DNA from: Bacteroidota bacterium
Lineage (GTDB): Bacteria > Bacteroidota > Bacteroidia > Bacteroidales > B18-G4
Assembly: GCA_013202965.1 (NCBI GenBank)
Contig: JABMQZ010000178.1
Coordinates: 24,344 to 88,343 of the forward strand
Direction: 5' to 3'
DNA length: 64,000 bases
Positions 40,299 to 59,243 of this stretch are shown one piece after another. Numbering within the stretch: the first letter of the stretch is position 1; every line of letters starts with the position of its first letter. Made by a program: the position numbers and the translations under genes. The notes under the pieces were generated by a model. It saw only the letters and a program-made list of their open reading frames with translations, searched no databases and was not told the origin of the DNA.

Positions 40299-42806
40299 AT
40301 GAAAAAATATTTATTATATATCTTTATCCTGATGATACTAGCTTCCTGCAGTCATAAAAACCGGATCAAACAGGATTTGTCGACAGCCTGGGAATTCCAC
40401 CAAATAAATGACGACAAAACTTATTCAGCAAATGTTCCCGGATGCATCCATACCGACCTGTATGAACACGGGCTTATTCCTGATCCGTATTTCAGGGATA
40501 ATGAATCCTCTGTGCAATGGATTGGTGAATCAACATGGGTATACACATCTGAATTCATCCCGGATCCCGGACTTCTTGAAAAAGAAAATATTGAATTGGT
40601 ATTTGAAGGACTTGACACATATGCGAAAGTTTTTTTAAATGATTCCCTCATCACTTCAGCCGATAATATGTTTCGCACATGGAAGGCAGATGTCAAAAAC
40701 CTCCTGGTCCCCGGATCCAATATTTTATCAATAGTCTTTTCCCCACCGGGAGAAAAAAATGCAGAAAAAGCTGCGGCTCTACCCTATAAGTTGCCTGACA
40801 ACAGGGCCTTCACACGGAAGTCACCTTATCATTTTGGCTGGGACTGGGGCCCCGAAATCATCAGCTGCGGGATATGGAAACCGGTATATCTAAATAGCTG
40901 GGAGCATTTCAGGATACAAAATGTATATGTAAGCCATCCTCCTCCGTCTGGCGAGGGTGTAAATATCAATATTCATCTTGCGATTGAAGCAGATGCCGCA
41001 CAAAGTGTACGGATCAAGGTTTTTGATGATGAAAAGAACCGGCGACTGGCTTTTGAGAAACATGATCTGGAAGCCGGAATCAATCATGTTACTCTGGATT
41101 ATTATCTCGAAAACCCGGAATTATGGTGGCCGAACGGCCTGGGTGAACCAAAGCTGTATACCATCAGGATCAGTGTGATGGATATGGGATGGGAAGATGA
41201 GCAGATCACAACATTTGGTATCAGGGAAATTGAACTCATCAGGGATGAAGATGAATTTGGGGAAAGCTTTTATTTTAAGGTTAACGGCATAGCTGTCTTT
41301 ATGAAGGGTGCCAATTATATTCCACAGGATAATTTCCTTCCCCGGGTGAATAGTCTTCGTTATAAAAAGCTGATCAAATCCGTTGTGGATGCCAATATGA
41401 ACATGCTTCGGGTCTGGGGCGGAGGTTTTTATGAAAATGATATTTTTTATGACCTCTGTGACCGGAATGGTATTCTGCTGTGGCAGGATTTCATGTTTGC
41501 CTGCAATATGTATCCGGGAGATGATCATTTCCTGGCGAACGTGAAGTCAGAAGCCATCGACAATGTTACACGCCTGAGAAACCACCCATGCATTGCCCTG
41601 TGGTGCGGGAATAATGAAATTGATGAAGGCTGGCACAATTGGGAATGGCAGAAGCAACTTGGATATTCGACGAAAGATTCTATCGGTGTATGGCATGATT
41701 ATGAAACTGTTTTTCATGACATTCTACCTGCTGTAGTTGAAAAATATGATCCCGGAACAATCTACCGGCCGTCATCTCCCATGACTGGCTGGGGCAAGGA
41801 TGAAGCATATACCCAGGGTGATGTCCATTACTGGGGCGTATGGTGGGGCGAAGAGGCATTTGACATGTACCGTGAAAAAACCGGGCGGTTTATGAGCGAA
41901 TACGGATTCCAGGGAATGCCATCAATGGAAAGCGTGCTCTCTTTCACCGAACCGCAAGACAGGTACATCGGGTCCCCCGTGATGGAAGCACACCAGAAAC
42001 ATCCACGGGGAGCTGAACTGATCCAAAAATATATGGAGCGGGAATTCATCGTACCTGAAAAGTTTGAGGATTATCTTTATGTGAGCCAGGTTTTACAGGC
42101 TGAGGGAATGGCAGAAGCTTTTCTTTCCCACCGGATATCACAGCCTTATTGCATGGGGACACTCTACTGGCAATTGAACGACTGCTGGCCGGTGACCTCC
42201 TGGGCCGGGCTGGATTATTATGGTAAGTGGAAAGCGCTGCATTATCATGTGAAGCGGGCTTATGCGCCTGTCATGATCAGGGTAGCTGAGAAAGAAGGCA
42301 GCATTGATGTCTATGCCGTAAATGATCATTTGGAAGACAAAGAAGTGGAACTGCGCCTTGAATTAATGGATTTTAATGGAACCAGGATTGTGAGCAAGCG
42401 GGAAACGATAGTACTGCCTGCCCGGACCAATCAATTGATCTATTCAATGTCCGATAAAGTAGATGATCCTGAAAATACGGTTCTTTTTTCCGGCTTATTT
42501 GAGAATGATTCAGCTGTTTCCAGTTCATTTCATTATTTTGCTCCAACAAAAGATATGAAACTACCGGATCCGGGCCTGACATTTGAAATTGATAAAACAG
42601 CTTCGGGCTTGCAGCTGACCCTGCATACAGTAAAACACGCCAGGCAGATATACCTGGAGGTGCCGGGCTTTGATGGGCGTTTTGACGATAACTTTTTCGA
42701 TATGGCTGCCGGCGAAACAAAAACTGTTGATTATGAAGGGAGTACAGATGTCAATAAGATGTCTGAAAAACTAAAAATAAAAAGTATTTATGACACCTAT
42801 CACTAA
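40299..42806 (+). CDS. GH2 beta-mannosidase (lipoprotein)
   Basis: 835 aa with a lipobox (LASCSH). WQDFMFACNMYP, WCGNNE (acid/base Glu) and MSEYGFQGMP (nucleophile Glu) fit GH2 beta-mannosidases. Confidence 0.88.
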   Translation: MKKYLLYIFILMILASCSHKNRIKQDLSTAWEFHQINDDKTYSANVPGCIHTDLYEHGLIPDPYFRDNESSVQWIGESTWVYTSEFIPDPGLLEKENIELVFEGLDTYAKVFLNDSLITSADNMFRTWKADVKNLLVPGSNILSIVFSPPGEKNAEKAAALPYKLPDNRAFTRKSPYHFGWDWGPEIISCGIWKPVYLNSWEHFRIQNVYVSHPPPSGEGVNINIHLAIEADAAQSVRIKVFDDEKNRRLAFEKHDLEAGINHVTLDYYLENPELWWPNGLGEPKLYTIRISVMDMGWEDEQITTFGIREIELIRDEDEFGESFYFKVNGIAVFMKGANYIPQDNFLPRVNSLRYKKLIKSVVDANMNMLRVWGGGFYENDIFYDLCDRNGILLWQDFMFACNMYPGDDHFLANVKSEAIDNVTRLRNHPCIALWCGNNEIDEGWHNWEWQKQLGYSTKDSIGVWHDYETVFHDILPAVVEKYDPGTIYRPSSPMTGWGKDEAYTQGDVHYWGVWWGEEAFDMYREKTGRFMSEYGFQGMPSMESVLSFTEPQDRYIGSPVMEAHQKHPRGAELIQKYMEREFIVPEKFEDYLYVSQVLQAEGMAEAFLSHRISQPYCMGTLYWQLNDCWPVTSWAGLDYYGKWKALHYHVKRAYAPVMIRVAEKEGSIDVYAVNDHLEDKEVELRLELMDFNGTRIVSKRETIVLPARTNQLIYSMSDKVDDPENTVLFSGLFENDSAVSSSFHYFAPTKDMKLPDPGLTFEIDKTASGLQLTLHTVKHARQIYLEVPGFDGRFDDNFFDMAAGETKTVDYEGSTDVNKMSEKLKIKSIYDTYH

Positions 42807-43656
42807 TATCCGCTTAGCGTGGATCGCCGTATTTTTGTTGATCTTGCTTATGCCCTGTTCAGGCCAGGAACGAGAAAATATTGAAGTAATAACATTTAAC
42901 ATCCGATACGATAATCCGGCTGATGGAATATTTTCCTGGGAAAATCGTAAGGATATGGTCTTTTGGGTGATAGCTAAATATGATCCGGATATCCTTGGCA
43001 TCCAGGAAGCCTTAAAAAGCCAGGTCGATGAACTTGAAGAATTTCTTACGGAGTACAGCTGGTTGGGAGCAGGCAGGAATGACGGGCATCATCAGGGCGA
43101 GTATGTACCGATCTTCTTTAAAAAAGACAGGTTCATGCTGGCTGAAGAAGGTCATTTCTGGTTATCTAAAACGCCGGAAATACCCGGTAGCATGGGCTGG
43201 GATGCCGCATGTACGCGTATGGTGAGCTGGGTGAAACTCAATGAAGCCCGGAGCGGGAATGAATACTTTGTTTTTAATACACATTTTGATCATATTGGTG
43301 AAGAAGCAAGAGAGAATAGTGCCCGTCTGCTCACCGACAGCATCCTTAGTATTGCAGGTTCCGGGCCGGTGATCATCACGGGCGACCTGAATGCAGACCC
43401 CGAATCCGGAACAGTGAAAGTATTATCGCAATTATTTTCGGATTCCAGGCTCGGAGCTGAAGTGTCGGAAACAGCTTCGGGAACAACATTTATCGGCTTT
43501 CCAGCGGATATGAACCAGGGAAAGATTATCGATCATATTTTTGTAAGTAAGCATTTTATTATAGAAGAATATGAGATCATATCCGATAATACAGGCGGAT
43601 ATTATCCGTCAGACCATTTACCCGTATGGGTGTGCCTGCAAATGAGTGCACAATAA
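42790..43656 (+). CDS. Endonuclease/exonuclease/phosphatase (EEP) family protein, secreted
   Basis: 288 aa with a signal peptide. TFNIRYDN, ILGIQEA, TGDLNA and SDHLPV are EEP catalytic motifs. It overlaps the upstream gene by 17 nt. Confidence 0.85.
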   Translation: MTPITNIRLAWIAVFLLILLMPCSGQERENIEVITFNIRYDNPADGIFSWENRKDMVFWVIAKYDPDILGIQEALKSQVDELEEFLTEYSWLGAGRNDGHHQGEYVPIFFKKDRFMLAEEGHFWLSKTPEIPGSMGWDAACTRMVSWVKLNEARSGNEYFVFNTHFDHIGEEARENSARLLTDSILSIAGSGPVIITGDLNADPESGTVKVLSQLFSDSRLGAEVSETASGTTFIGFPADMNQGKIIDHIFVSKHFIIEEYEIISDNTGGYYPSDHLPVWVCLQMSAQ

Positions 43657-46108: not shown

Positions 46109-48421
46109 ATGAAAACGAAGTACCTTTTTCTGCTTGCCATCGGACTCCTCTTCCTGGCGAGCTGTAATCCCCCATCCAATAAAGATATTAATATCATCCC
46201 GCAGCCGGCCAATGCCTACGTTAAACCCGAATCTTTTACCATTGATTCGGAAACCCGCATCATCACACAGACTGAGCAATCAGATGTCGTAGCCATTTGC
46301 GAGTACTTCAATGACTTTATTGAGCATGCTGCCGGTTTCAGGCTGGAAGTCGTGGATGATGAAGAGGTACAAAGCTTTTCAGGTGATATCGTGATCACCA
46401 CCTATAATGCGGATAGCACATGGGATGATGAAACCTATAAACTGGATGTTTCCGGAAGCAGTTCGGTGGTCTTGCAGGCAAAAACACCCGCCGGGCTTTT
46501 TTATGGGGTGCAAACAATACTGCAGCTGCTGCCGCCTGAAATTGTCAGCAAGACAGTCGTTGAGGATATAGAACTTGATATGCCTTCTGTATATGTTTAT
46601 GACTTTCCTCGCTTTGAATGGAGGGGAATGCACCTTGATGTTTGCAGGCATTTCTTTCCCAAGGAGTTCATAAAAAAGTACCTGGATCTGATGGCCATGT
46701 ACAAGATGAATATGTTTCATTGGCACCTGACCGAAGATCAAGGCTGGAGGATTGAGATCAAAAAATATCCGGAGCTCGCAAAAGTGTCTGCCTGGCGCAC
46801 CGAAGCCGATGGCAGTGTGTACGGTGGTTATTATACCCAGGATGATATCCGGGAGATCGTAGAATATGCCGGACAAAGGCAGATCACCATTATCCCTGAA
46901 ATCGAGATGCCCGGCCATTCTATTGCTGCACTTGCAGCATACCCGGAACTGTCCTGCACAGGAGGCCCGTTTGAGGTGGCTACGATCTGGGGGGTGAAAG
47001 AGGATGTGTATTGTGCCGGAAATGAAAAAACCTTCGAGTTTCTGGAAAATGTACTGCTGGAGGTAATGGAGCTATTCCCCGGTGAGTACATTCATATAGG
47101 TGGGGATGAATGTCCGAAAAACAGATGGCAGCATTGTTCAAAATGCCAGGCAAGGATACGGAAAGAAGGCCTGGCAGATGAATTTGAACTGCAAAGTTAT
47201 TTCATTAAGCGTATTGAGACTTTCCTGAATGAGCATGGCCGCAAGTTGATTGGCTGGGATGAGATCCTCGAAGGCGGGCTTGCTCCTGAAGCCACCGTGA
47301 TGTCGTGGCGGGGTGAGGAAGGCGGGATTAAAGCTGCACAGATGGGCCACGATGTGGTGATGACACCAAATTCAAATTGTTATTTCGACCATTATCAGGC
47401 TGATCCGTCCACGCAGCCCAAAGCCATCGGTGGATTTACCACCCTCAGGGATGTATATCACTACAATCCGGTGCCTGCCGAGCTGAATGATGCAGAACAA
47501 GAGCATATCCTTGGTGCCCAAGGCAATGTCTGGACAGAATACATTGCCACTCCTGAATATGCTGAATATATGGCTGTACCCAGGATGATCGCTCTTGCAG
47601 AGGTAGACTGGTCAACGGAAAAAAGGATCGACTGGGAGCGATTCATGAGAAAAATGGATTTTCATTTTAAGCGATTGGATATCATGGGTGTGAACTATTG
47701 CGATGCCGTCTTTGAGGTTGAGATCACCCTGGAATATGACGAACAAAATAAAGCAGTGATGATACAACTGGAATCGGAACTGGAAGAAGCGGAGATACGG
47801 TATACCCTCGATGGTTCTGATCCCGGGGTGGATGCTACAGTATACGATACACTATTTAAATTGGAAAGATCTGCTATCGTCAAGGCTCGTGTTTTTGTTA
47901 ACGAAGAGATGAAAGGCCATATTTCTGAACGCGAGATAAAAATGCATCAAGGGATAGGCAAACACTTATCTTATAGAAACGATTACAGTGATAAGTACAC
48001 GGCAGGCGGAGACCATGGCCTGCTAAATGGCATCCGGGGCTCGGTGCATCATAATGACGGGCAATGGCAGGGCTTCAGGGGTGATGATGTTGAAGTGGTG
48101 ATCGATCTTGGAGGTGTATCCACCATTAAAAGCATTACTGTCGGTTTTCTGCAAAATATGACCACCTGGATATTCATGCCCTCTACTGTGAGTTTCCTGG
48201 TATCAGATTCAGATTCGGATTTCAAAAGTGTGGGTGAGTTTATTAACAGCATCCCCATGGAGAACAAGGAAAGCATGGTGAAAAATTTCTCCAGAAATTA
48301 CACTGACTTACATGCAAGGTATATTAAGGTCATTGCCAAAAACCCGGGGCCCTGTCCGGATTGGCATCCGGGAGCAGGAAGTCCGTCCTGGGTGTTTGTG
48401 GATGAAATAATTATTGAATAA
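46109..48421 (+). CDS. GH20 beta-N-acetylhexosaminidase with chitobiase-C-like and F5/8 type C (discoidin) C-terminal modules (lipoprotein)
   Basis: 770 aa with a lipobox (LFLASCN). MFHWHLTEDQGWR and HIGGDE (the Asp-Glu catalytic pair) are present, with a C-terminal discoidin-like domain. Confidence 0.9.
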   Translation: MKTKYLFLLAIGLLFLASCNPPSNKDINIIPQPANAYVKPESFTIDSETRIITQTEQSDVVAICEYFNDFIEHAAGFRLEVVDDEEVQSFSGDIVITTYNADSTWDDETYKLDVSGSSSVVLQAKTPAGLFYGVQTILQLLPPEIVSKTVVEDIELDMPSVYVYDFPRFEWRGMHLDVCRHFFPKEFIKKYLDLMAMYKMNMFHWHLTEDQGWRIEIKKYPELAKVSAWRTEADGSVYGGYYTQDDIREIVEYAGQRQITIIPEIEMPGHSIAALAAYPELSCTGGPFEVATIWGVKEDVYCAGNEKTFEFLENVLLEVMELFPGEYIHIGGDECPKNRWQHCSKCQARIRKEGLADEFELQSYFIKRIETFLNEHGRKLIGWDEILEGGLAPEATVMSWRGEEGGIKAAQMGHDVVMTPNSNCYFDHYQADPSTQPKAIGGFTTLRDVYHYNPVPAELNDAEQEHILGAQGNVWTEYIATPEYAEYMAVPRMIALAEVDWSTEKRIDWERFMRKMDFHFKRLDIMGVNYCDAVFEVEITLEYDEQNKAVMIQLESELEEAEIRYTLDGSDPGVDATVYDTLFKLERSAIVKARVFVNEEMKGHISEREIKMHQGIGKHLSYRNDYSDKYTAGGDHGLLNGIRGSVHHNDGQWQGFRGDDVEVVIDLGGVSTIKSITVGFLQNMTTWIFMPSTVSFLVSDSDSDFKSVGEFINSIPMENKESMVKNFSRNYTDLHARYIKVIAKNPGPCPDWHPGAGSPSWVFVDEIIIE

Positions 48422-48515: not shown

Positions 48516-49412
48516 ATGAAAAGCACCACCCTTAAATCTGACAGCCTGCTTCTACTAACATCTTTGATTTGGGGCCTCGCTTTCGTTGCACAGCGGCTTG
48601 GGATGGATTATGTGGGGCCGTTTATCTTTAACGGAATACGTTTTGCGCTGGGAGCGATGGCCATCGTTCTTTTCATTTATTTTTCACGCAGGAATAATAA
48701 TGTTTCAGGAGAAAAAAGCTCACAGGGCAATAAATTATTGCTGCGTGGCGGGCTCATCCTGGGCCTTGTGCTTTTTGGCGGTGCTACTTTCCAGCAATTT
48801 GGAATGGTTTACACTACTGCATCTAATGCAGGTTTCATCACCGGGTTATATGTTGTGATCGTTCCCATCCTGGGCTTGCTCAGGAAACAATATCCCCACT
48901 TCACGATATGGATTGCGTCATTGCTTGCTGCCGCGGGATTGTACCTTTTAAGTGTCACCGAAGGTTTTTCTATTTTCTTTGGTGACTTGCTGGTGTTGAT
49001 CGGGGCGGTATTCTGGGCTGTACATGTGGTCATCATCGGAGTGCTGTCACCTAAAGTAAATGCGCTCAAACTAGCATTGATCCAATACCTGGTATGCTCG
49101 GTACTAAGCACCATCCTTGCGTTCAGCACTGAACAAAATACCCTGGAAGGGGTGCTTGATGCAAGCATTCCGATACTCTATGGTGGATTATTGTCTGTTG
49201 GTATTGCATATACCCTCCAGATAATTGCACAGAAGAAAGCACCCCCGGCACATGCTGCCATTATCCTCAGTCTGGAGGCGGTTTTTGCAGCATTGGGTGG
49301 ATGGATCATCCTGAATGAACAGCTTGGCAGCAGGGAACTGGCCGGCTGTGCGCTGATGATGCTTGGCATACTGGTGGCACAGTATTGTTCTTTCATGAAA
49401 AGGAAGTGTTAG
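48516..49412 (+). CDS. EamA/DMT-family transporter
   Basis: 298 aa with about 10 TM helices in two EamA-like halves (SLIWGLAFVAQR...). Confidence 0.8.
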   Translation: MKSTTLKSDSLLLLTSLIWGLAFVAQRLGMDYVGPFIFNGIRFALGAMAIVLFIYFSRRNNNVSGEKSSQGNKLLLRGGLILGLVLFGGATFQQFGMVYTTASNAGFITGLYVVIVPILGLLRKQYPHFTIWIASLLAAAGLYLLSVTEGFSIFFGDLLVLIGAVFWAVHVVIIGVLSPKVNALKLALIQYLVCSVLSTILAFSTEQNTLEGVLDASIPILYGGLLSVGIAYTLQIIAQKKAPPAHAAIILSLEAVFAALGGWIILNEQLGSRELAGCALMMLGILVAQYCSFMKRKC

Positions 49413-49474
49413 ACTGGAAATATCAATTCGATCTCTCACCTAAAAATCATAATTTTATGGCGGGAATTGCGTTG

Positions 49475-49482
49475 TAACTTTG
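49475..49482 (+). promoter_or_regulatory. Candidate -7 promoter box (TAACTTTG)
   Basis: Matches TAnnTTTG, 21 nt upstream of the ATG at 49503. It lies inside the TTG-extended ORF of the track, which supports the shorter gene model. Confidence 0.4.
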
Positions 49483-49502
49483 CCCAAATTAGTATACGAG
49501 AT

Positions 49503-51077
49503 ATGATGAAACGAATTGCATTTTGCACCCCGATAATCTTTCTTTTATTCTCTTACCAGATATATGCACAGCATATCAGCATTGAACCCGGGCCTGATAA
49601 TGATACGATCTCCACAAATGTGTCCGGTACACCTTTGTATTATTTCAGGAGCGCTACAGCTGGCATTGTTTTGCTGAAGAACCATGGTGGACTTCTTCCA
49701 CTCGACACAAGTCAGATAAATTCGATTGCCCTGATCGGTCCGTCACTGTTTTTTTCCGGTGCCGGAGAAGGTAAAAGCCCTGAGGTAGATTTAACAAATG
49801 CCGTTTCCCCATACGAAGGAATTAAAAAATATGTTGGTGATGCAGTTTTCCTATACACAGCACAGGGAGTTAACATTAAAAATGATGTTGCACCACTCGA
49901 CACCTCATTCGTATATATCGGACAGGGCGTAAATGGATTTTCTGCCAAGTATTATAATAAGCTGAAAGCCTCCGGATCTCCCGCCAAATTTGCTATAGAT
50001 AAACAGATTGATTTCAGCTGGGGGTACGCACTTCCACACGCCGAAATAATTTCCAGTGAGTTCTCTGTCAAGTGGGATGCAAGCCTCATCCCACCTCATG
50101 GTGGCCAGGTGAAGGTGAAATTAATACATAATGACGGCTGCAGGCTGTTCCTGGATGGAAAACTCATGATTGATGCATGGAAATCCGGGCCGGTGAGGAT
50201 AGATTCTGCCTGGCTGAATATTGAGAAAGGTGGGTCGTATAACTTGCAGATCGATTATTTCTCGGATGGTGGGCCTGCGCAGATTAAGTTCGGAATTGAT
50301 TACCTGATCGATAATATGATCGCCAATGCAGTTGAAAAAGCCCGCAGGGCTGATGTGACCATCATTTTTGTCAGGCAGCCCCTCGACTTCGAATATAACC
50401 ATAATAGCCGGGGGCTTTATTGCATCCCAAACCAATCAAGGTTGATCAGGGCCGTTTACGAAGCTAACCCGAATACTATAGTTGTGTTGCAAACGAATGA
50501 TTCTGTGGATATTGAGGCTTGGGTTTTCGATATACCTGCCATCATCCAGGCCTGGACACCCAGGCAGAAAAGCGGTGCAGAGATTGCAGAAGTATTGTTT
50601 GGAGAAGTCAATCCCGGTAGTAAACTTCCACACAGATGGGTAATGAGTGAGAATCAGAATTTCGATACCCGTTTCCCTTTAGGATATGGTATGACCTATA
50701 CTACTTTTGGCATTGGTAAACTGATGATGAGGCGAAACCAGAACGACAGTGGATGGATAGCCACTGTTGAGATCCGCAATGTGGGTGAGCGGGCCGGATC
50801 AGAAACTCTGCAAGTGTATATAAATGATCCTGAAAGAGATATAGAAAAAGCTGAAAAAGAGCTTATGGCTTTTAAAAGGGTCACACTCTTTCCGGGACAA
50901 AAAAAGACTGTTGCGATTCCGCTGCCATACGAAGCATTTTCATATTATAATGAGGAAGATGGAAGATGGACCATTGACCCCGGCAAGTATGAAATACTGA
51001 TTGGCACTTCCTCGGAAGAGATCAAACTCAGGAAAACGATAGAGATAAAAGAAGAACACATAGATCAATGGCAATGA
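49503..51077 (+). CDS. GH3 C-terminal domain / PA14 / Fn3-like protein lacking the GH3 N-terminal catalytic domain
   Basis: The signal peptide is followed directly by the start of the GH3 C-domain (VLLKNHGGLLPLD...IALIGP). A PA14-like insert follows (FSAKYYN...CRLFLDGKLMIDAW), then the rest of the C-domain (IVVLQTN...EVLFGEVNPGSKLP) and an Fn3-like end (TLQVYINDP...). No TIM-barrel domain is encoded upstream. Confidence 0.75.
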   Translation: MMKRIAFCTPIIFLLFSYQIYAQHISIEPGPDNDTISTNVSGTPLYYFRSATAGIVLLKNHGGLLPLDTSQINSIALIGPSLFFSGAGEGKSPEVDLTNAVSPYEGIKKYVGDAVFLYTAQGVNIKNDVAPLDTSFVYIGQGVNGFSAKYYNKLKASGSPAKFAIDKQIDFSWGYALPHAEIISSEFSVKWDASLIPPHGGQVKVKLIHNDGCRLFLDGKLMIDAWKSGPVRIDSAWLNIEKGGSYNLQIDYFSDGGPAQIKFGIDYLIDNMIANAVEKARRADVTIIFVRQPLDFEYNHNSRGLYCIPNQSRLIRAVYEANPNTIVVLQTNDSVDIEAWVFDIPAIIQAWTPRQKSGAEIAEVLFGEVNPGSKLPHRWVMSENQNFDTRFPLGYGMTYTTFGIGKLMMRRNQNDSGWIATVEIRNVGERAGSETLQVYINDPERDIEKAEKELMAFKRVTLFPGQKKTVAIPLPYEAFSYYNEEDGRWTIDPGKYEILIGTSSEEIKLRKTIEIKEEHIDQWQ

Positions 51078-51227: not shown

Positions 51228-53936
51228 ATGATAAAGACAAAATCCGGCAGTTCCTGCCTTGCAATAATATTACAGATTATCCTTACTGCTGTTATTTCTT
51301 CACAGGTGTTTTCCAGCAACGAATATATGGCCTTGAGTCGCTATGATTATTATACTACGGAGGAAACAGTGGAACTCATCGTATGGGTTCCTGAATCAAA
51401 ATCAGGGCTTTCTGTCAATATTGACGTGGTCTTTGAATATGACTTTCTCGCCAAAGGTGAAAATGTTGTTGCGGGGCAGATGAATATTTTTTCTTTCCCC
51501 TTTGAGAAATTTCATTTGGGAAGCAATGAGATTACTGTATCCTATAATGAACATGGGAAATGGGTGGATTCAGATAAAGTGGAACTGATCATCAGGGCAG
51601 ATCAGTACAATGCAGTGAAGATTGATCGTGCAAGCGGGGGGCTGATCGTGGAAGGATTGCCGTTTTTCCCCTTCGGGTTCTACAATTATTCCCCGGTACA
51701 GCCAGGCCTGGCTGAAGAAGAGGTAGTGCAGGGTTTCAATATGATGTCTCCCTACCAGAAGATCGAAGGAAAAACTTTGAAGCAGCGAAAAACCTATATG
51801 GACCGCTGTGCCGCGCTTGGGATGAAAGTGAATTACAACCTGCTCAGCCTGGCCGGTGGAGGCGGAGTTGCTTCCAAAAAATATGATAAACTCAGCCGCT
51901 CTAAGCAGATCAAAATGCTGAGAAAAGAAATAGAAACTTTCAGGGATCACCCTGCACTATTGTCATGGTATATCAGCGATGAACCCGTTGGACAGGGCGT
52001 TCCTCCGGATTCACTGCGCTATGCCTATGATTTGATCAAAGAACTGGATCCATACCATCCGATTACTATTGTATTCATGAGTCCCTGGATGGCAAAAGAC
52101 TACAGCCATGTGATGGATATTGTGATGGCCGATCCGTATCCCATTCCTCAAGGCAGTGTTGATGAGGTGGGGGCAACGGCTGCCCTGCTCCATTCAGAAT
52201 TCTTTCTCAGTAAGCCGGTATGGATTGTGCCACAGGCTTTTGGCGGCAATGAATGGTGGCTGCGCGAACCCACCAAACAGGAACTGCGTGCCATGACATA
52301 CCTGGGCATTGTGAACAAGGCCATGGGGATACAGTATTTTGTCAGGCATGGATTAAACTCATTCCCCAAATCTACCGTAGCATGGAATGAATGTGCAGCC
52401 ATCTCCCTGGAAATTGCCGAGCTGACTCCTTTCCTTTTTTCAGCTGATCCGGCACCTGATATCTCCTGCGAAGAAATCAATGTTCAATTAAAAGCGTACC
52501 ATAAGGATGGCTCTTTTGTCATTATTGCAGTGAATACAGTCAACAAACCCCTTGAATATAGTTTTATCCTGGATGGAATGAATTACTCAGGCTCGGCAGG
52601 CGTTCTGTTTGAAGACAGAAGAGTGGGCGTGAATATAGGCCGGGTGGAAGATATTATTGATGCGTATGGTACAAGGGTTTACCAGATCAGGTATAAGCTG
52701 GGTATGAGCAAAGCTGCGAAACTTTATTACAAAAATATTATCAAAGATCCGAGCTTTGAAGATATCACTGGGACCGGCGTCCCTGCTTCATGTTATGCCA
52801 GGCCTCAGGGGGAAAGGGGTGCTACCTATTTTATTGATTCCAGAACCTCAGCGCGCGGGAATCACTCTCTGAGACTTACCACGCCTACCTCAAACGAGGG
52901 GATGTCCCTTTCCTTTTACCGTTTGAGAATAGAACCGGGACAGAGTTATACCATGAGCGTACAGGCCAAAGCCCTCCCGCTCAAATTTCGTGAAAAGATC
53001 CATAAATGTTTTTTTAAGCGCCTCTGTGGTTGTGGGCCTGATGAAGAGGATTATCCGGAATTCAGCATGTCGTTTGGATCCAATTGTGAAGAATCATTTA
53101 TCCCGGACGGGGAATGGAATGAATACTCCTTTAGCTGTATTCCCATCCCGGAGTATGGAGTAAATCAGCTTTCACCTGTATTGAAACTGGATGGCAAAGG
53201 CACGGCCTGGTTTGACCTGCTGCAACTTTATCCGGATATGAAGATCACATCATCGGTGAATAAGGAGAATAATAATATCATGCTCAACATCACAACGGTT
53301 CATAAGAATGCAGATATTTATTATAGTCTGGATGGATCTGAGCCCGGACCCGCTTCAGATAAGTATACAAGAAATATCGTGCTCAGCGAAGCTGCCACCA
53401 TTAGGGCCACCGCATACAAAGAGGGCATTCGTGTAGGAAATATTGAAAGGTACTTTGAAATAAATATGGCCATTGGCCGCTATGTGGATTATAAATACAA
53501 ATATTCCCCTAAATACAATGCCGGCTATAACAATGGCCTGGTGGATGGCATCCTGGCTTCTGCCGATTTCAAGGATGAAAAATGGCAGGGATTTGAAGGT
53601 GAAGACTTTGATGTGGTGATCAACCTGGGAAAGTTAAAACACATTTCAGAGATAGAACTGCATTTCCTGCAGGATAAAGCTTCATGGATTTTCTTCCCCA
53701 CCGGGATAAAAGTATTATGGTCGGCGAATGGAAATGATTTTTATGAATTAGAGCATGATGTTCGCGAGAGAATTGATTACGAAGATCCCCATATTTACAA
53801 GTACAATTTAAAAAGTGATGGCATCGAAGCAAGATATTTTCGCATCATTGCCGGAAATATTGGAGTCTGCCCTGAAGGCCATCCGGGTGCAGGAGGAAAA
53901 GCATGGCTGTTTACCGATGAAATAATCATACGATAA
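51228..53936 (+). CDS. Unassigned glycoside-hydrolase-like multidomain protein (beta-sandwich, TIM-barrel-like, CBM4/9-like, chitobiase-C-like, F5/8 type C)
   Basis: 902 aa from the ATG at 51228; the track starts at a TTG at 51177. It has a signal peptide. A TIM-barrel-like region carries HPALLSWYISDEP. A CBM-like segment reads NIIKDPSFED...GNHSLRL. The C-terminal ~210 aa aligns by eye with the GH20 tail. Confidence 0.7.
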   Translation: MIKTKSGSSCLAIILQIILTAVISSQVFSSNEYMALSRYDYYTTEETVELIVWVPESKSGLSVNIDVVFEYDFLAKGENVVAGQMNIFSFPFEKFHLGSNEITVSYNEHGKWVDSDKVELIIRADQYNAVKIDRASGGLIVEGLPFFPFGFYNYSPVQPGLAEEEVVQGFNMMSPYQKIEGKTLKQRKTYMDRCAALGMKVNYNLLSLAGGGGVASKKYDKLSRSKQIKMLRKEIETFRDHPALLSWYISDEPVGQGVPPDSLRYAYDLIKELDPYHPITIVFMSPWMAKDYSHVMDIVMADPYPIPQGSVDEVGATAALLHSEFFLSKPVWIVPQAFGGNEWWLREPTKQELRAMTYLGIVNKAMGIQYFVRHGLNSFPKSTVAWNECAAISLEIAELTPFLFSADPAPDISCEEINVQLKAYHKDGSFVIIAVNTVNKPLEYSFILDGMNYSGSAGVLFEDRRVGVNIGRVEDIIDAYGTRVYQIRYKLGMSKAAKLYYKNIIKDPSFEDITGTGVPASCYARPQGERGATYFIDSRTSARGNHSLRLTTPTSNEGMSLSFYRLRIEPGQSYTMSVQAKALPLKFREKIHKCFFKRLCGCGPDEEDYPEFSMSFGSNCEESFIPDGEWNEYSFSCIPIPEYGVNQLSPVLKLDGKGTAWFDLLQLYPDMKITSSVNKENNNIMLNITTVHKNADIYYSLDGSEPGPASDKYTRNIVLSEAATIRATAYKEGIRVGNIERYFEINMAIGRYVDYKYKYSPKYNAGYNNGLVDGILASADFKDEKWQGFEGEDFDVVINLGKLKHISEIELHFLQDKASWIFFPTGIKVLWSANGNDFYELEHDVRERIDYEDPHIYKYNLKSDGIEARYFRIIAGNIGVCPEGHPGAGGKAWLFTDEIIIR

Positions 53937-55906
53937 TGAAAAAATCAATTTATACCATTTTAGCTGCCTTCAGCGGATTGTTGATGATGAGCAATGTACT
54001 CTATGCAGATGAGTATAAACTGCTTTCACCCGACGGGAAGATCAGGCTTGAAGTGAACACAGATGACAAAGTTGCCTACGCTGTATATTACGGTGAGCGC
54101 ATGATCATCTCCCCATCACAGATCTCTTTACATACCGAAAGACATGGTGGCTTCGGGATTAAGCCTGGGGTGAAGTCTGTGAAAAGAAGATCTGTTGACC
54201 AGCTGATCAGCCCGGTGGTGAGACAAAAATCAGCGGAAGTCAGAGACCATTTTAATGAGCTTAGTATAAGTTTTAAAGGAAAATATTCGCTTATTTTCAG
54301 GGCATATGATGAAGGTGTTGCCTACCGTTGGGAAAGCAGCATTAAAGATGAATTGATCGTGCTCACAGAAGAGGCCAGCTTCAGCTTTCCGGATAATTAT
54401 CTGGTGTTTTTTCCCGAAGAAGAGCGCTTATTTACCCATCAGGAAAGGGAATACCTGTATATCCCCCTGGAAGAGATCACCTTTGATCGTTTCTCATCCA
54501 TTCCACTGCTCGTAGATGTTAGCGGAGGGCCGAAAGTGCTCATCACGGAAGCTGACCTGCAGGACTATCCCGGCATGTATTTGCAGGGTGATCCTGATGC
54601 CTTCACTTTAAGAGGAAAATTTCCACGTTTTGTTCTGGAAGAGGAAAAGAAAAACGACAGGGATATCGTCCCGGTGAAAAGAGCCGATTATATTGCAAAG
54701 GTGAATGGGGAGCGCACTTTCCCCTGGCGGGTGATCGCCATTGCAGGTGAAGACAAGGAACTTCTTGCCAACCAGATGGTCTTCCTCTTATCGGAACCCT
54801 GCAAGATAGAAGACCCATCCTGGATCAAGCCCGGGAAAGTAGCCTGGGACTGGTGGAATTTCAACAATATTTACGGGGTGAACTTTGAAGCAGGGATCAA
54901 TACTGAAACCTATAAATACTATATTGATTTTGCGGCTGCAAATAATATTGATTATATCATCCTGGATGAGGGCTGGTATGAGCTAGGGGATCTGACAGAA
55001 ATCAATCAGGAAATTAATATGGAGGAATTGCTGGCCTACGGAAAAGAAAAAGGCGTAGGGATCATCCTTTGGGTGATTTGGAAAACGCTGGATGATCAGC
55101 TCGGGGAGGTGATGCCCTTGTTTGAGGAATGGAGTATAGCCGGCCTGAAGATAGACTTTATGCAGCGTGACGACCAATGGATGGTAGACTATTACTGGAG
55201 AATTGCTGAAGAGGCTGCCACAAGAAAATTCCTCATTGATTTCCACGGAAGCTATAAACCTGCAGGACTGCATCGCACCTGGCCCAATGTGATCACACGT
55301 GAAGGCGTGCGTGGCATGGAATGGTGCAAGTGGAGCGACAAGGCCACACCTGAAATGGCTGTTACCCTGCCATTCATAAGGATGTTTGCTGGTCCGATGG
55401 ATTATACGCCGGGGGCCATGCTTAATGCTACCAAAGAGGACTTTGAAGCTATTTTTGCTACGCCTATGAGCCAGGGCACAAGAGCCCAGCAACTTGCCAT
55501 GTATGTGGTATTCGAAAGCCCGCTGCAGATGCTGGCCGATAACCCCACCCATTATATGAAAGAAGCGGAATGTATGCAATTCCTGTCGAAGGTTCCGGTG
55601 GTTTGGGATGAAACGGTGGTGCTGGACGGAAAAGTTGGCGACTTTGTTGTTGTGGCCAGGCGAAACGGCTACGAATGGTACATTGGTGCAATGACCGACT
55701 GGGATGCCAGGGAACTGGAAATTGACCTTTCTTTCCTGGGCGACAGGAAATTTGAGGCCACAATCTGGAAAGATGGGCCTAATGCCCACAGGAATGCACA
55801 GGATTTTATAAAAGAAAGCATTATCGTTGATAAGAATACAAAACTTGAGATTAAGCTGGCTCCGGGAGGGGGATGGGCTTGTATACTGTCAATTGTGAAA
55901 ATGTAG
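53936..55906 (+). CDS. GH97 alpha-glycosidase (alpha-glucosidase/alpha-galactosidase family)
   Basis: 656 aa with a signal peptide. GLKIDFMQRDDQ, DFHGSYKPAGLHRTWPNVITREGVRGME and FAGPMDYTPG are typical GH97 blocks. Confidence 0.88.
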   Translation: MKKSIYTILAAFSGLLMMSNVLYADEYKLLSPDGKIRLEVNTDDKVAYAVYYGERMIISPSQISLHTERHGGFGIKPGVKSVKRRSVDQLISPVVRQKSAEVRDHFNELSISFKGKYSLIFRAYDEGVAYRWESSIKDELIVLTEEASFSFPDNYLVFFPEEERLFTHQEREYLYIPLEEITFDRFSSIPLLVDVSGGPKVLITEADLQDYPGMYLQGDPDAFTLRGKFPRFVLEEEKKNDRDIVPVKRADYIAKVNGERTFPWRVIAIAGEDKELLANQMVFLLSEPCKIEDPSWIKPGKVAWDWWNFNNIYGVNFEAGINTETYKYYIDFAAANNIDYIILDEGWYELGDLTEINQEINMEELLAYGKEKGVGIILWVIWKTLDDQLGEVMPLFEEWSIAGLKIDFMQRDDQWMVDYYWRIAEEAATRKFLIDFHGSYKPAGLHRTWPNVITREGVRGMEWCKWSDKATPEMAVTLPFIRMFAGPMDYTPGAMLNATKEDFEAIFATPMSQGTRAQQLAMYVVFESPLQMLADNPTHYMKEAECMQFLSKVPVVWDETVVLDGKVGDFVVVARRNGYEWYIGAMTDWDARELEIDLSFLGDRKFEATIWKDGPNAHRNAQDFIKESIIVDKNTKLEIKLAPGGGWACILSIVKM

Positions 55907-55984: not shown

Positions 55985-57253
55985 ATGGAAGACAGAAGAA
56001 AAGATTACCTGATCCCAATCATTATTATAGGATTTCTGTTCTTTATTTTTGGCTTTGTTACCTGGCTGAATGCTACATTGATCCCGTATTTAAGGATTGC
56101 CTGTGAATTAACTGCTTTTGAATCTTTCTGGGTGACCTTCGCCTTCTATATTTCCTACTTTGTGATGGCTCTTCCTTCATCTGTAGTACTCAATAAAACA
56201 GGCTTCAAAAACGGGATGTCGATCGGCCTGGTCACCATGGCCATCGGAGCACTCGTATTTATTCCTGCCGCCATGACAAGAACCTATGGATTGTTCCTTA
56301 CCGGCCTTTTTGTACAGGGTACCGGCCTGGCCATCCTGCAAACCGCTTCGAACCCCTATGTAACTATCCTGGGCCCAATCGAAAGTGCTGCAAAACGTAT
56401 CAGCATTATGGGTGTGGCCAATAAGTTTGCGGGCATACTCAGCCCTGTCATTCTCGGTGCCATTCTATTGGCGGGAGTTGATGATCTGGTTGTGCAGATA
56501 GAAGAAATGGATATGGTGTCAAAAGCAATAGCCCTTGATGACCTTGCCCTGAAAGTCATTAATCCATATATTGTTATGGCAATAGCATTGTTTCTGCTGG
56601 CCGGACTGGTGCGTTTTTCATCACTGCCTGACATAGATACCGAAGAAGAACATGATGACGGAACTCAAACGGCAAGAACAAGTATCTGGCAGTTTCCCTA
56701 TCTGCTACTTGGTGTAATTACGATATTCGTATATGTTGGTGTGGAAGTGGTCGCTGTAGACACTCTGATCGGCTATGGAAACTTCCTGGGCTTTGAATTT
56801 GCTGAAGCCAAATTTTTCGCCTCCTTCACACTATTTGCCATGATCGTGGGATATTTTATCGGCATCATCACGATTCCAAAATATATATCTCAGGCAAACG
56901 CTCTTAAGTATTTTGCTATGCTTGGAGTGGTCTTTACAATTATTGCAAGCATGACTGATGGCTATACATCTATCCTTATGATCGCAGCCCTGGGATTTGC
57001 AAATTCCATTATGTGGCCGGCCATCTGGCCCCTTGCCATCGAAGGACTTGGTAAATTTATCAAGATAGGCTCAGCCCTGTTGGTCATGGGAATTGCCGGA
57101 GGTGCTTTGCTTCCGCTTCTATACGGTTATTTAGCAGATGTAGGATCGGTTGGCGCGACCCAGGCCTATTGGATCATGCTTCCCTGCTACTTGTTTATTT
57201 TGTTTTTTGCAGTCAAAGGACATAAAATTGGTAAATCCATTCAGAAAAGATAA
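55985..57253 (+). CDS. MFS sugar permease, FucP/GluP (FHS) family (paralog of 43705..45084)
   Basis: 422 aa. FIFGFVTWLNATLIPYLR and LQTASNPYVTILGP parallel the motifs of the first permease. Confidence 0.88.
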   Translation: MEDRRKDYLIPIIIIGFLFFIFGFVTWLNATLIPYLRIACELTAFESFWVTFAFYISYFVMALPSSVVLNKTGFKNGMSIGLVTMAIGALVFIPAAMTRTYGLFLTGLFVQGTGLAILQTASNPYVTILGPIESAAKRISIMGVANKFAGILSPVILGAILLAGVDDLVVQIEEMDMVSKAIALDDLALKVINPYIVMAIALFLLAGLVRFSSLPDIDTEEEHDDGTQTARTSIWQFPYLLLGVITIFVYVGVEVVAVDTLIGYGNFLGFEFAEAKFFASFTLFAMIVGYFIGIITIPKYISQANALKYFAMLGVVFTIIASMTDGYTSILMIAALGFANSIMWPAIWPLAIEGLGKFIKIGSALLVMGIAGGALLPLLYGYLADVGSVGATQAYWIMLPCYLFILFFAVKGHKIGKSIQKR

Positions 57254-57255
57254 AT

Positions 57256-58161
57256 ATGAAACCTGCATTGCTTATACTTGCCGCAGGCATCGGCAGCCGC
57301 TACGGTGGAATAAAACAAATGGATACACTTGGCCCCGGAGGGGAAAGCATTATCGATTATTCTGTTTATGATGCCATCAGGGCAGGATTTGGGGAAATAG
57401 TCTTCGTAATCAATAAAAAGATCGAAAAAGATTTCAGGGAGGTGTGGGAGCCAAAACTAGATGCTAAGGCTGATTGTTCTTTTGTGATCCAGGATCCGGA
57501 AGACCTTCCAAACGGCTTTAAATTACCCGCTGACAGGCTCAAGCCCTGGGGTACGGGACAGGCAGTTCTGGCAGCACGTCACGAGATCAATACTCCTTTT
57601 GCAGTAGTCAATGCGGATGATTTCTATGGAAGGGAATCTTATCAGCTTATTTATGATTTCCTGACAGGCAATACTGACGAAAAGGCCTGTTGCATGGTTG
57701 GATATCACCTGCTTAATACGCTGTCTGAATATGGTACTGTTTCCAGGGGAGTCTGTGAATTTAACGATCGGCATTATCTCAGCAAGATCAGCGAGATCAC
57801 CAATATTGAGAAAAGGGGAGAAGGTATCGGTTTTGAATCCCCGGCCGGACAATTTAACAATCTCGACGGGCATTCTCTCATCTCAATGAATATCTGGGGC
57901 TTTACACCGCTCGTAATGGATTATCTTGAATCTGGCTTTGTAAGGTTTCTTGAGTCAAACATTGCAAATGATAAGGCCGAATATTACCTGCCCGGCAGGC
58001 TTAATGAACTGGTAAATGATGGCCTCATGACTGTGAAAATGCTTGAAACTGCATTCAAATGGTTTGGGGTTACATACAAGGAAGATAAAGACGAAACCAT
58101 TGACAGGATCAACCAAATGGTTTCAAATGGGGAATACCCTTTGTATTTATGGGAAAAATGA
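57256..58161 (+). CDS. Sugar-1-phosphate nucleotidyltransferase (NTP_transferase fold)
   Basis: 301 aa with the N-terminal G-rich loop LILAAGIGSRYGGIKQ, plus KPWGTGQAV and VVNADDFYG. There is a 2 nt gap from the permease gene and an overlap with the kinase gene. Confidence 0.8.
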   Translation: MKPALLILAAGIGSRYGGIKQMDTLGPGGESIIDYSVYDAIRAGFGEIVFVINKKIEKDFREVWEPKLDAKADCSFVIQDPEDLPNGFKLPADRLKPWGTGQAVLAARHEINTPFAVVNADDFYGRESYQLIYDFLTGNTDEKACCMVGYHLLNTLSEYGTVSRGVCEFNDRHYLSKISEITNIEKRGEGIGFESPAGQFNNLDGHSLISMNIWGFTPLVMDYLESGFVRFLESNIANDKAEYYLPGRLNELVNDGLMTVKMLETAFKWFGVTYKEDKDETIDRINQMVSNGEYPLYLWEK

Positions 58162-59243
58162 TGAAAAAATTCGATTTTGTATCAATTTTGAAAGCCTTCG
58201 GAATTGACCCTGACCTAAGCAACATAAAGGAATTTCACAGAGGTCATATCAACGATTCATTTATCCTGGAGGTGGAACAAAAAAGTTATTTCTTTCTCCA
58301 GCGGATCAATCACCATGTCTTCAAGGACCCTGAAGCTTTGATGGAAAACCTGGTGAAGGTGTATATCGCTTTGAATAAGCATTACGGGGGCAGTGCGAAC
58401 AATCCGTTTCCCGGGATCCATCAAGGAGAAAATAATAAGCAGTTCTATTGCGACCATGATGGCAATTACTGGAGGGTGATGGATTATGTTCCGGACAGCC
58501 GTTCGTTTAATATAGCCGAAAATGTTGAAATTGCCAGGAAGGGAGCCGCTGCCTTCGGCTTATTCCAACTTGCCATCATGGAGGAAGACCCTGAAGGATA
58601 CATTCCTACCATACCGAATTTTCATCACCTCGGAATGAGGTTGGAGCAACTGAAGGATGCTCTTGAAAAAGATGCATTAAAAAGAAGCCGGATTGCACAA
58701 AGGGAGATAGACTTTGCCCTTGAAAGGATGAAATACGGAGAACAATTGGCGGAACTGCTTCGAAAAAAGATCATCCCCGTACGTGTGACACATAACGACA
58801 CCAAGCTCAACAATGTACTGTTTGAAAACAATAGCATAAAAAGCATTTGTGTAGTTGACCTTGATACAGTGATGCCCGGTACGGTCCTGTATGATTACGG
58901 TGACATGGTACGCACCTTCACCAGCCCGCTTGAAGAGGATGAACCGGATCCGGCGAAAGTTGTATTCAGGGAAGAGATCTTTGAAGCCCTGACAGAAGGC
59001 TATCTTTCGGAACTGGGTGGCAGCCTGACGAAAGAAGAAAAAGAACATTTGCTTTTCGGAGCCAAAATAATGCTTTTGATGATCGGAGCCCGTTTTCTGA
59101 CCGACTTTCTGGAAGGAGATCATTATTTTAAAACCACCCGTGAAAATCATAACCTCGACCGCTGCAGAAACCAGTTTATCCTCCTCAGACAACTCGAGGA
59201 AAAAGAAAATGAACTACAGGAGATCATTAGCAAATACTCCTGA
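58149..59243 (+). CDS. N-acetylhexosamine 1-kinase-like phosphotransferase (NahK/APH fold)
   Basis: 364 aa. RVTHNDTKLNNVLF and VVDLDTVMPG, together with the whole C-terminal half, match my memory of Bifidobacterium NahK. The start may be the ATG at 58158 (an ATGA overlap). Confidence 0.75.
   Translation: MGKMMKKFDFVSILKAFGIDPDLSNIKEFHRGHINDSFILEVEQKSYFFLQRINHHVFKDPEALMENLVKVYIALNKHYGGSANNPFPGIHQGENNKQFYCDHDGNYWRVMDYVPDSRSFNIAENVEIARKGAAAFGLFQLAIMEEDPEGYIPTIPNFHHLGMRLEQLKDALEKDALKRSRIAQREIDFALERMKYGEQLAELLRKKIIPVRVTHNDTKLNNVLFENNSIKSICVVDLDTVMPGTVLYDYGDMVRTFTSPLEEDEPDPAKVVFREEIFEALTEGYLSELGGSLTKEEKEHLLFGAKIMLLMIGARFLTDFLEGDHYFKTTRENHNLDRCRNQFILLRQLEEKENELQEIISKYS

Follow-up and report, generated by a model that had tools for sequence, protein, structure and literature searches.

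The best sequence-level relatives of the β5-β8 half of the protein analyzed here are enzymes of glycoside hydrolase (GH) family 42. The protein (hereafter the target) is the 902-residue multidomain product of a gene at positions 51228 to 53936 (+) of a 64,000-nucleotide stretch of contig JABMQZ010000178.1 from a Bacteroidota bacterium; this whole stretch is referred to as the window. GH42 enzymes and the target share a (β/α)8 barrel with W-x-x-x-(N/D)-E on strand β4, D-x-Y-P past β6, x-Q-x-x-G past β7, a Trp eight residues past the nucleophile column and G-I-x-(Y/F)-F on β8, but GH42 residues E307 and Asn149 are replaced by Pro335 and Asp251 in the target, which also has N- and C-terminal β-sandwiches and carbohydrate-binding modules (CBMs) instead of the trimerization and C-terminal domains of GH42. 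GH42 enzymes are typically cytoplasmic, whereas the target is predicted to be exported. For the region running from α3 through β4 and α4 to β5, the best matches are GH2 β-glucuronidases and LacZ together with GH158, with the motifs H-P-A-(L/V)-x-x-W-x-x-x-(N/D)-E-P and D-P-x-(R/H)-P-V in common; unlike GH2 enzymes, the target is without the GH2 sugar-binding and Ig-like domains and without a β7 Glu, and the alignment ends at β6. In clan GH-A, the Asn preceding the acid/base hydrogen-bonds the C2 substituent of the substrate.

The archaeal exo-β-D-glucosaminidase GlmA, a GH35 enzyme whose architecture is GH42-like, resembles the target in belonging to clan GH-A and in having Asn-Glu changed to Asp-Glu, with the Asp at the position of the Asn contacting the C2 nitrogen of glucosamine (GlcN), but it keeps a β7 nucleophile (Glu347), works by double displacement, is specific for GlcN and leaves the dimer of N-acetylglucosamine (GlcNAc), (GlcNAc)2, uncleaved (PMC6566704). 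No detectable sequence match between GlmA and the target was found in the searches made. The acid residue of GH112 is an Asp. GH112 GLNBP has a GH42-like barrel that has lost the nucleophile, phosphate in its site and NahK in its operon, but it is intracellular (PMC8106489), while the target appears to be exported and carries Asp-Glu. The substrate-assisted families GH20 and GH123 are marked by an Asp-Glu pair and the lack of an enzyme nucleophile (PMC11087588), and they work with consecutive Asp-Glu at the end of β4; this is a mechanistic likeness to the target and not membership, and the catalytic resemblance would be convergent. GH123 further shares an N-terminal β-sandwich followed by the barrel (PMC11087588), and C-terminal tail modules like those of the target are found in the GH20 enzyme BT0459 (6q63) and in the GH20 enzyme of the window. 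The target combines a GH42/GH2-like scaffold with a GH20/GH123-like catalytic logic, for which GlmA is a half-way precedent, and comparison with Pfam, NCBIfam and the Protein Data Bank (PDB) sets its relatives apart as what is probably a new GH family whose catalytic apparatus is altered. The parts of the core that carry this finding are as follows.

51603 to 52442 (+): (β/α)8 barrel, clan GH-A-like catalytic core, residues 126-405 (AlphaFold2, Foldseek and weak Pfam matches)
Barrel strands in the AlphaFold2 model: β1 149-153 (FGFYN), β2 172-175, β3 200-204, β4 244-251
Barrel strands, continued: β5 279-283, β6 298-301, β7 331-333, β8 368-371
51957 to 51986 (+): strand β4 and the D251-E252-P253 motif (LLSWYISDEP), from alignments to GH2, GH158, GH42 and LacZ
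52131 to 52142 (+): end of β6, D302-P-Y304-P, aligning with GH42 D-x-Y-P (Tyr277 in 3tts)
52215 to 52271 (+): strand β7 and the β7-α7 loop (PVWIVPQAFGGNEWWLREP), with Pro335 in the GH42 nucleophile column

In alignments, the β4 segment HPALLSWYISDEP coincides with the acid/base motif W-x-x-x-N-E-P of GH2 β-glucuronidases, GH158, GH42 and the LacZ encoded in the window. In PDB sequence and profile searches, H-P-A-L-L-S-W-Y-I-S-D-E-P falls on W-S-V-A-N-E-P of human and bacterial GH2 β-glucuronidases and on GH158, and the window LacZ, with W-S-M-G-N-E-A, gives the same β4 match in hhalign. When a more diverse profile (alignment A5) limited to β4-β8 was searched against the PDB, it matched GH158 (9oro, E = 5.8e-9), GH42 (9ta3, E = 1.7e-8), GH2 (1bhg, E = 8.8e-8) and GH42 again (3tts, E = 9.4e-8). 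With this profile, 3tts H-P-Q-I-V-M-W-H-V-S-N149-E150 corresponds to H-P-A-L-L-x-W-Y-I-x-D251-E252, and 3tts Q-P-F-M-L-M306-E307-Q-T-P-G-V-Q-N-W315 corresponds to K-P-V-W-I-V334-P335-Q-A-F-G-G-N-E342-W343, with E342-W343 on the N-W of GH42; 9ta3 shows the same register. The GH42 catalytic site consists of N149, E150, M306 and E307, Glu150 being the acid/base and Glu307 the nucleophile (PMC10673005). By the 3tts and 9ta3 alignments, Glu252 occupies the clan GH-A acid/base position on β4, where it is the predicted general acid/base, and Pro335 occupies the β7 nucleophile position; at position 251, Asp replaces the near-universal Asn of the clan.

The predicted structure places these residues accordingly. 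AlphaFold2 models built with family alignments reached a mean pLDDT (predicted local distance difference test) of 86.9 at full length, and a pLDDT of 91.9 with a predicted template-modeling score of 0.92 for residues 30-500. DSSP assignments on these models put D251-E252 and Pro335 at the C-terminal ends of β4 and β7, on the barrel face, and the segment VWIVPQAFGG comprises strand β7 (331-333) and its C-terminal end and contains no Asp or Glu. The original prediction, made from the letters and ORFs (open reading frames) alone, had described a 902-residue multidomain protein with the order signal peptide, sandwich, barrel, CBM4/9-like module and tail, and this order is borne out by a check of the ORF, by AlphaFold2 and by the Pfam matches of relatives. 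It had also placed the barrel entry where the model has strand β1 (FGFYN, 149-153), Asp-Glu at the N-E-P site of clan GH-A, and VWIVPQAFGG at β7 without a nucleophile; the first agrees with the model, the second with the GH2, GH42, GH158 and LacZ alignments and with family-wide conservation, and the third with the DSSP strand and with Pro335 in the GH42 column. It had allowed that the motif might lie away from the barrel active site, and in the model it lies at the C-terminal end of β4.

Conservation was called in 85 close homologues and in 80 sequences consisting of 79 genome-derived relatives and the window protein, and is given below in that order.

D251: 81/85 (the rest Glu); 78/80
E252: 78/85; 78/80
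P335: 82/85, never acidic; 79/80
Q336: 85/85; 80/80
E342: 78/85; 77/80
R346, E347 and E352: each 85/85; each 80/80

Y304 is conserved as well (77/80), R346-E347-P348 is invariant among the close relatives, and the basic residues R346, R373 and K381 near β7/β8 are invariant. A divergent set of 37 sequences, made up of the window protein and 36 representatives with identity down to 23% (23-44%), shows D-E-P in 34 and, in the nucleophile column, Pro with a few Leu or Thr and never Asp or Glu. Glu342 is present in 31 of the 37, while the six members that lack it retain DEP; it remains a candidate catalytic residue on the strength of its conservation. Glu347 of R-E-P was considered as a nucleophile and rejected, as several divergent members that retain DEP have Thr, Gln, Ile or Asp there. 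The ORF itself runs from an ATG at 51228 to a TAA at 53934-53936 (902 residues plus stop) and is not a chance ORF, because at least 1,078 homologues of its product are found in a 90%-clustered database, nearly all of them unnamed or annotated as "hypothetical protein." The family comprises 1,623 representatives at 50% clustering (E ≤ 1e-30), and at least 549 species-level genomes carry relatives. Among the 80 best genome loci, metagenome-assembled genomes (MAGs) account for nearly all, with one single-cell genome and zero cultured isolates; MAG hosts include Bacteroidales, Rikenellaceae, Lentimicrobiaceae, Cloacimonadota, Kiritimatiellota, Latescibacterota and Saprospiraceae.

With respect to family assignment, the core is claimed by no Pfam or NCBIfam family above threshold in library scans, and the score of the window protein is 17.4 bits for GH42 PF02449 and 12.8 bits for GH2_C PF02836 (cut-off of 21 in both cases), with no match to PF02837 or PF00703, the sugar-binding and Ig-like domains of GH2. 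When 38 members were scanned one by one with Pfam (E ≤ 0.1), weak GH42 matches appeared in 33 of them (best E = 8e-9) and weak GH2_C matches in 32, while PF00728 (GH20), DUF4091/PF13320 (GH123) and DUF4838 (GH163/GH185) appeared in none; hhalign of the target against the barrel of the window GH20 gave a probability of 0.2%. Full-length Foldseek searches were swamped by tail and multidomain matches with root mean square deviations of 20-35 Å, and a core-only model was used instead. Its best PDB match is 9gpa, a GH5 mannanase flanked by sandwiches (template-modeling [TM] score of 0.59, 12% identity), and enzymes of GH2, GH66, GH39, GH30 and GH13 come next; we take the GH5, GH2, GH39 and GH30 matches (E down to 1e-18, TM of ~0.4-0.6) to be clan GH-A barrels. 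This PDB Foldseek search yields no close solved structure for the core (best TM of ~0.5-0.6 at ~12% identity), and its top 50 is without GH20, GH123, GH112 and GH156 entries. That the core could not be matched to a family had been said in the original prediction, and it holds: no Pfam or NCBIfam assignment, subthreshold GH42 and GH2 scores, no close PDB structure and, in the Pfam and NCBIfam scans, no clear hit to an established family with other catalytic residues. Taken together, these comparisons point to a distant clan GH-A relative nearest GH42 and GH2 and outside the families of the Pfam, NCBIfam and PDB libraries searched. Full-text literature searches returned no described family member and no clan GH-A enzyme with neighboring-group participation.

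Individual families were weighed against these results. By the defining features of these families, the target is not a member of GH42, since PF02449 stays below its gathering score and the nucleophile is replaced, nor of GH2, with PF02836 below threshold and PF02837 and PF00703 absent. Catalytic homology to GH20 was rejected on the absence of PF00728 from the 38 members and the hhalign result, only the noncatalytic tail being common to both. DUF4091 is common to GH123 and the related β-NGA groups 1-4 (PMC11087588), and all of these were rejected given its absence from the 38 members and the absence of GH123 from the Foldseek top 50; GH163/GH185, which DUF4838 marks (PMC10570127), were rejected in the same way. 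GH112 finds no Pfam, PDB-sequence or Foldseek top-50 match, and the target family has signal-peptide-like N termini. A GH156 sialidase, an idea raised by a cluster without a sialidase, was rejected as well: GH156 has an Asp14 (β1) and His134 dyad and resembles Cwp19/GHL10 rather than GH42 (PMC6811678), whereas β1 of the target (FGFYN) carries no conserved Asp, and no GH156 match was found in the PDB sequence searches or in the Foldseek top 50.

The genes around the target bear on its substrate. Those most relevant in the window are listed here.

46109 to 48421 (+): GH20 β-hexosaminidase, three genes upstream of the target, with the same C-terminal tail but a separate protein
55985 to 57253 (+): NagP-like major facilitator superfamily (MFS) transporter, best family match NagP
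57256 to 58161 (+): nucleotidyltransferase, close to PDB 3pnn (E = 3e-88)
58149 to 59243 (+): NahK-type N-acetylhexosamine (HexNAc) 1-kinase, matching PDB 4wh1 and 4ocj (E = 3e-67)

The last three genes (55985..59243) probably form a trio for HexNAc uptake and anomeric-kinase salvage, leading by a putative nucleotide-sugar route to what is presumably uridine diphosphate (UDP)-HexNAc. NahK phosphorylates GlcNAc and N-acetylgalactosamine at C1 (PMC6264712, PMC8106489). The trio recurs beside the target family in many uncultured Bacteroidales. We clustered the neighbors in 80 loci from other genomes and annotated representatives; in counts that are not phylogenetically independent, we observe GH20 (17 loci), NahK homologues (15), LacZ (14), GH127-like (14), GH97 (9), NagP-like MFS (9), nucleotidyltransferase (9), S37 peptidase (8), sulfatase (7), GH18 (6), GH29 (5), GH3 (5), glycosylasparaginase (4), GH92 (4) and GH38 (4). 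The GH127-like partner lies within a Rikenellaceae synteny block that also carries housekeeping genes. Family members (X in the orders below) recur in N-glycan gene sets with GH18, GH20, GH2, GH29, GH38, GH92 and glycosylasparaginase. The salvage genes occur as X > MFS > NTP-transferase > NahK, as NTP-transferase > NahK > X, as X > GH20 > NahK and as X > sulfatase > NahK, and since there are several different gene orders, this argues for a selected linkage beyond inherited synteny alone. At L005, L008-L010, L023 and L024, the trio adjoins the target, and no GH20 lies within 10 kb. Judged by gene content, the setting appears to be the breakdown of N-glycans or host glycans with release of free HexNAc.

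The barrel appears to descend from clan GH-A stock closest to GH42/GH2. We propose, giving the idea an even chance, that the target, as a multidomain member of a large uncharacterized family, is a retaining β-N-acetylhexosaminidase that acts via neighboring-group participation, with β-GlcNAc in N-glycan or host-glycan fragments as its most likely substrate. A 2-acetamido sugar would be bound at subsite −1, where Asp251 would orient and polarize the acetamido group; the acetamido oxygen would attack C1 while Glu252 protonates the leaving group to give an oxazoline/oxazolinium intermediate, which would be opened, with net retention, by a water that Glu252 activates. Tyr304 (β6), Trp332 (β7), Gln336 and Glu342-Trp343-Trp344 would line the −1 pocket, Pro335 would give space for the acetamido group, and the CBM4/9-like and CBM32-like modules would hold the glycan. 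Freed HexNAc would enter the cell through the NagP-like transporter, the NahK homologue would phosphorylate it at C1, and the adjacent nucleotidyltransferase would convert HexNAc-1-phosphate to a nucleotide-activated sugar, presumably UDP-HexNAc. Because S37 peptidase, glycosylasparaginase and GH18 are among the neighbors, a specialized exo-GlcNAc-ase and an activity like that of an endo-β-N-acetylglucosaminidase are both conceivable. HexNAc specificity is suggested circumstantially by the gene context (N-glycan enzymes and salvage trio), by the GlmA precedent and by analogy to GH20/GH123.

A substrate-assisted HexNAc-ase is also what the original prediction had arrived at. Its Asp-Glu pair without a nucleophile stands on the alignments and on conservation, while the HexNAc substrate has context and precedent in its favor; of the likeness to GH20/GH123, the mechanistic motif stands but homology does not (hhalign 0.2%, no DUF4091). 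The argument it drew from the tail shared with GH20 is a weak one, as this tail is an accessory module, found in 16 of the 38 members, with little bearing on specificity. We tentatively extend the proposal, at somewhat short of an even chance, to an origin of substrate-assisted, oxazoline-type β-HexNAc hydrolysis independent of GH18, GH20, GH84, GH85 and GH123, which would make this the first clan GH-A neighboring-group family in the literature searched and a part of N-glycan and host-glycan breakdown that is widespread but has been overlooked. The lineages that this extension names, with the same reserve, are uncultured anaerobic Bacteroidales, Cloacimonadota, Kiritimatiellota and others.

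Several observations weigh against a substrate-assisted HexNAc-ase. About 8% of the close relatives are without Glu252, and the gene is nevertheless kept at a LacZ>GH20>X position. Glu342 lies seven residues past the vacated nucleophile column; its conservation is similar to that of Glu252, and it is a possible relocated nucleophile. In GlmA, Asp-Glu accompanies specificity for GlcN, and steric hindrance by the Asp keeps GlcNAc out (PMC6566704). Similarity to known substrate-assisted families was found neither in sequence nor in fold (Pfam for the 38 members, hhalign for GH20, Foldseek top 50). Finally, the neighbor counts are subject to the dependence noted above, and GH20 and LacZ in the same context could themselves supply free HexNAc.

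All nine variants at position 251 or 252 in the 85-sequence set fall within one clade, with proteins of ~650-730 residues. Seven of them are without Glu252 (DMP twice, ENP twice, and DKP, DRP and DDP once each), two have EEP, and Glu342 is also gone in five of the nine. Examples are L081:10001-12109 and the relatives P0019, P0043, P0046, P0062, P0066, P0097 and P0110. The two variants with retrieved loci lie in a string EamA > CutC > LacZ > GH20 > X, directly downstream of GH20. Tandem paralogy was rejected as an account of the variants without Glu252, given the orthologous LacZ>GH20>X position and the single clade. Because the losses co-occur and all fall in this clade, they mark positions 251/252 and E342 as parts of what appears to be one functional site. 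We read the coupled, repeated loss as an apparent relaxation of that site in one lineage, possibly toward a noncatalytic role, and not as a sign that the site is dispensable generally; the clade members are candidate pseudoenzymes or binding proteins. The window protein falls outside this clade and has its motif intact.

Among the alternatives to neighboring-group participation, the strongest, though unlikely, is a retaining β-glycosidase of the Koshland type whose nucleophile has moved from the end of β7 to Glu342 in the β7-α7 loop, with Asp251 reading the C2 substituent. Asp251 may then bind the C2-NH3+ of GlcN or galactosamine, as in GH35 GlmA, or another polar group. The conservation of E342 (78/85, 77/80 and 31/37 in the divergent set) is in line with this, as is the coincidence of its loss with that of D251/E252, which points to the same site, and in GlmA Asp-Glu serves hexosamine recognition with normal double displacement (PMC6566704). 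However, the GH42 counterpart of E342, N314 in 3tts (beside W315), is not catalytic, and the six divergent members without E342 keep DEP. A nucleophile carried on a loop is not known to us from any clan GH-A family. β-Linked GlcN is, moreover, absent from the N-glycans and host glycans that the context suggests as substrates, and NahK and NagP act on N-acetylated sugars (PMC6264712).

Single displacement, with the vacated nucleophile site taken by an external nucleophile, is a less probable alternative, for which we see a slim chance: the protein would be either an inverting hydrolase, in which Glu252 is the acid and Glu342 or Asp302 activates water, or a phosphorylase of the GH112 GLNBP kind. 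The absent nucleophile would fit, the invariant R346, R373 and K381 could bind an anion, and GH112 offers a precedent that includes the linkage to NahK (PMC8106489). Against it, all 56 of the N-terminally complete relatives (56/56) have signal-peptide-like N termini by a crude rule and CBMs occur in the family, both atypical of phosphorylases; GH112 is missing from the Pfam, PDB-sequence and Foldseek top-50 matches; and the strictly conserved Asp251 is left unexplained.

It is somewhat less probable still that the target is a divergent member of GH20, GH123, GH163/GH185, GH156, the GH111 keratanase II family or a CAZy family that Pfam does not model. The cluster is without a sialidase, and the sulfatase in seven loci would fit an enzyme acting on keratan sulfate or 6-sulfo-GlcNAc. 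PF00728, DUF4091 and DUF4838 are nevertheless absent from each of the 38 members, the GH20 hhalign probability is 0.2%, none of GH20, GH123, GH163/GH185 and GH156 enters the Foldseek top 50, and GH156 has a different dyad (Asp14/His134) on a Cwp19/GHL10-like fold (PMC6811678).

Least probable for the window protein, at a very low likelihood, is a noncatalytic glycan-binding pseudoenzyme (a dead barrel with CBMs that aids the adjacent GH20 or binds alone), which would fit the missing canonical nucleophile, the tail common to the target and GH20 and the one clade just downstream of GH20 that has repeatedly lost D251/E252/E342 and is still maintained, and for which such a role is more likely, but which runs against the intact motif of the window protein, the many loci without a nearby GH20 and the catalytic-site-like constraint by which DEP and E342 are essentially invariant outside that clade across hundreds of species and down to ~25-30% identity.

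If the target is a neighboring-group HexNAc-ase, a classical double-displacement scaffold would have been turned substrate-assisted by two substitutions at defined barrel positions, with GlmA, which has Asp-Glu together with a nucleophile, as a plausible intermediate state. A large and almost wholly uncultured enzyme family would join the toolkit for N-glycan and host-glycan degradation, carbohydrate-active enzyme annotation of anaerobic-digester, sediment and gut metagenomes would improve, and new HexNAc-ases or transglycosylases (glycosynthase-type, with oxazoline donors) might be obtained. The degenerate clade beside GH20 would be a candidate for a transition from glycosidase to binding protein.

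Outside the barrel, the target is made up of the following parts.

51228 to 51314 (+): signal-peptide-like N terminus, residues 1-29, with basic K3 and K5 and a hydrophobic helix at 8-25, then ..VFS/SNEY
51315 to 51602 (+): N-terminal β-sandwich, residues 30-125 (AlphaFold2 secondary structure, pLDDT >90)
52443 to 52697 (+): β-sandwich behind the barrel, residues 406-490 (AlphaFold2; absent from the original prediction)
52725 to 53234 (+): CBM4/9-like β-sandwich, residues 500-669 (NIIKDPSFED...GNHSLRL...WFDLLQ), from Pfam matches of relatives and AlphaFold2
53235 to 53462 (+): CHB_HEX_C_1/Fn3_assoc module, residues 670-745 (Pfam E = 1.3e-11)
53463 to 53933 (+): F5/8-type-C (discoidin, CBM32-like) domain, residues 746-902 (Pfam 27.4 bits, cut-off 28.2)

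The N-terminal helix is of low confidence in the AlphaFold2 model; export of the family is predicted from the signal-peptide-like N termini of the relatives. Pfam CBM_4_9 (PF02018) is found in 18 of the 38 family members (best E = 3.4e-6), with no match in the window protein at E ≤ 0.1, and the module has weak profile matches to the CBM4 structures 1gui and 1k42. The tail (residues 670-902) is the only part of the window protein that Pfam recognizes; over 233 residues it shares 35% identity with the tail of the neighboring GH20 (E = 4e-48), and it matches that of the Bacteroides GH20 enzyme BT0459 (PDB 6q63, E = 7e-20). Other architectures occur among relatives: P0159, P0166 and P0208 (~940-980 residues) have an N-terminal extension of ~340 residues with no Pfam match, P0160 and P0179 have an N-terminal Laminin_G_3 (concanavalin-like) domain, and P0253 (1,232 residues) apparently has two clan GH-A-like barrels.

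The target lies in a co-directional cluster with the gene order below.

39510 to 62401 (+), first part: CutC, GH2 β-mannosidase, endonuclease/exonuclease/phosphatase (EEP)-family, FucP/GluP-like MFS, glycosylasparaginase, GH20, EamA
Second part: truncated GH3-like, target, GH97, NagP-like MFS, nucleotidyltransferase, APH-family kinase, LacZ-type GH2

The TAA of the target and the ATG of the GH97 gene that follows it overlap by a single nucleotide (TAATG at 53934-53938), and because of this overlap the two genes are almost certainly cotranscribed, possibly with translational coupling from the target to GH97. The GH97 gene product is an α-galactosidase homologue that scores 788.5 bits against the NCBIfam model "retaining alpha-galactosidase" (cut-off 800). 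A scan for sigma-70 promoters and terminators gave counts equal to the shuffle expectation and was uninformative. The EEP-family gene (42790-43656, +), within this glycan cluster, overlaps the end of the GH2 β-mannosidase gene by 17 nucleotides. The GH3-like ORF upstream of the target (49467-51077, +; 536 residues, TTG start) has only a GH3 C-terminal domain, a PA14 insert and an Fn3-like domain; it is without the N-terminal GH3 catalytic domain, for which there is no space upstream, EamA ending at 49412. Homologues elsewhere (e.g., L010:6102-8483) are 794-846 residues long with the N domain present, and two other loci have GH3-like forms of ~510-520 residues, lengths that were counted from the first Met and are possibly underestimated. 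In L027, L029, L045 and relatives (e.g., L045:7696-9923), the order is GH18 > GHL10-like > CBM9-like > target > GH38 α-mannosidase > GH18; Cwp19 and the GH156 sialidases belong to the GHL10 fold group, and the GHL10-like gene might encode the sialidase-like enzyme of that cluster.

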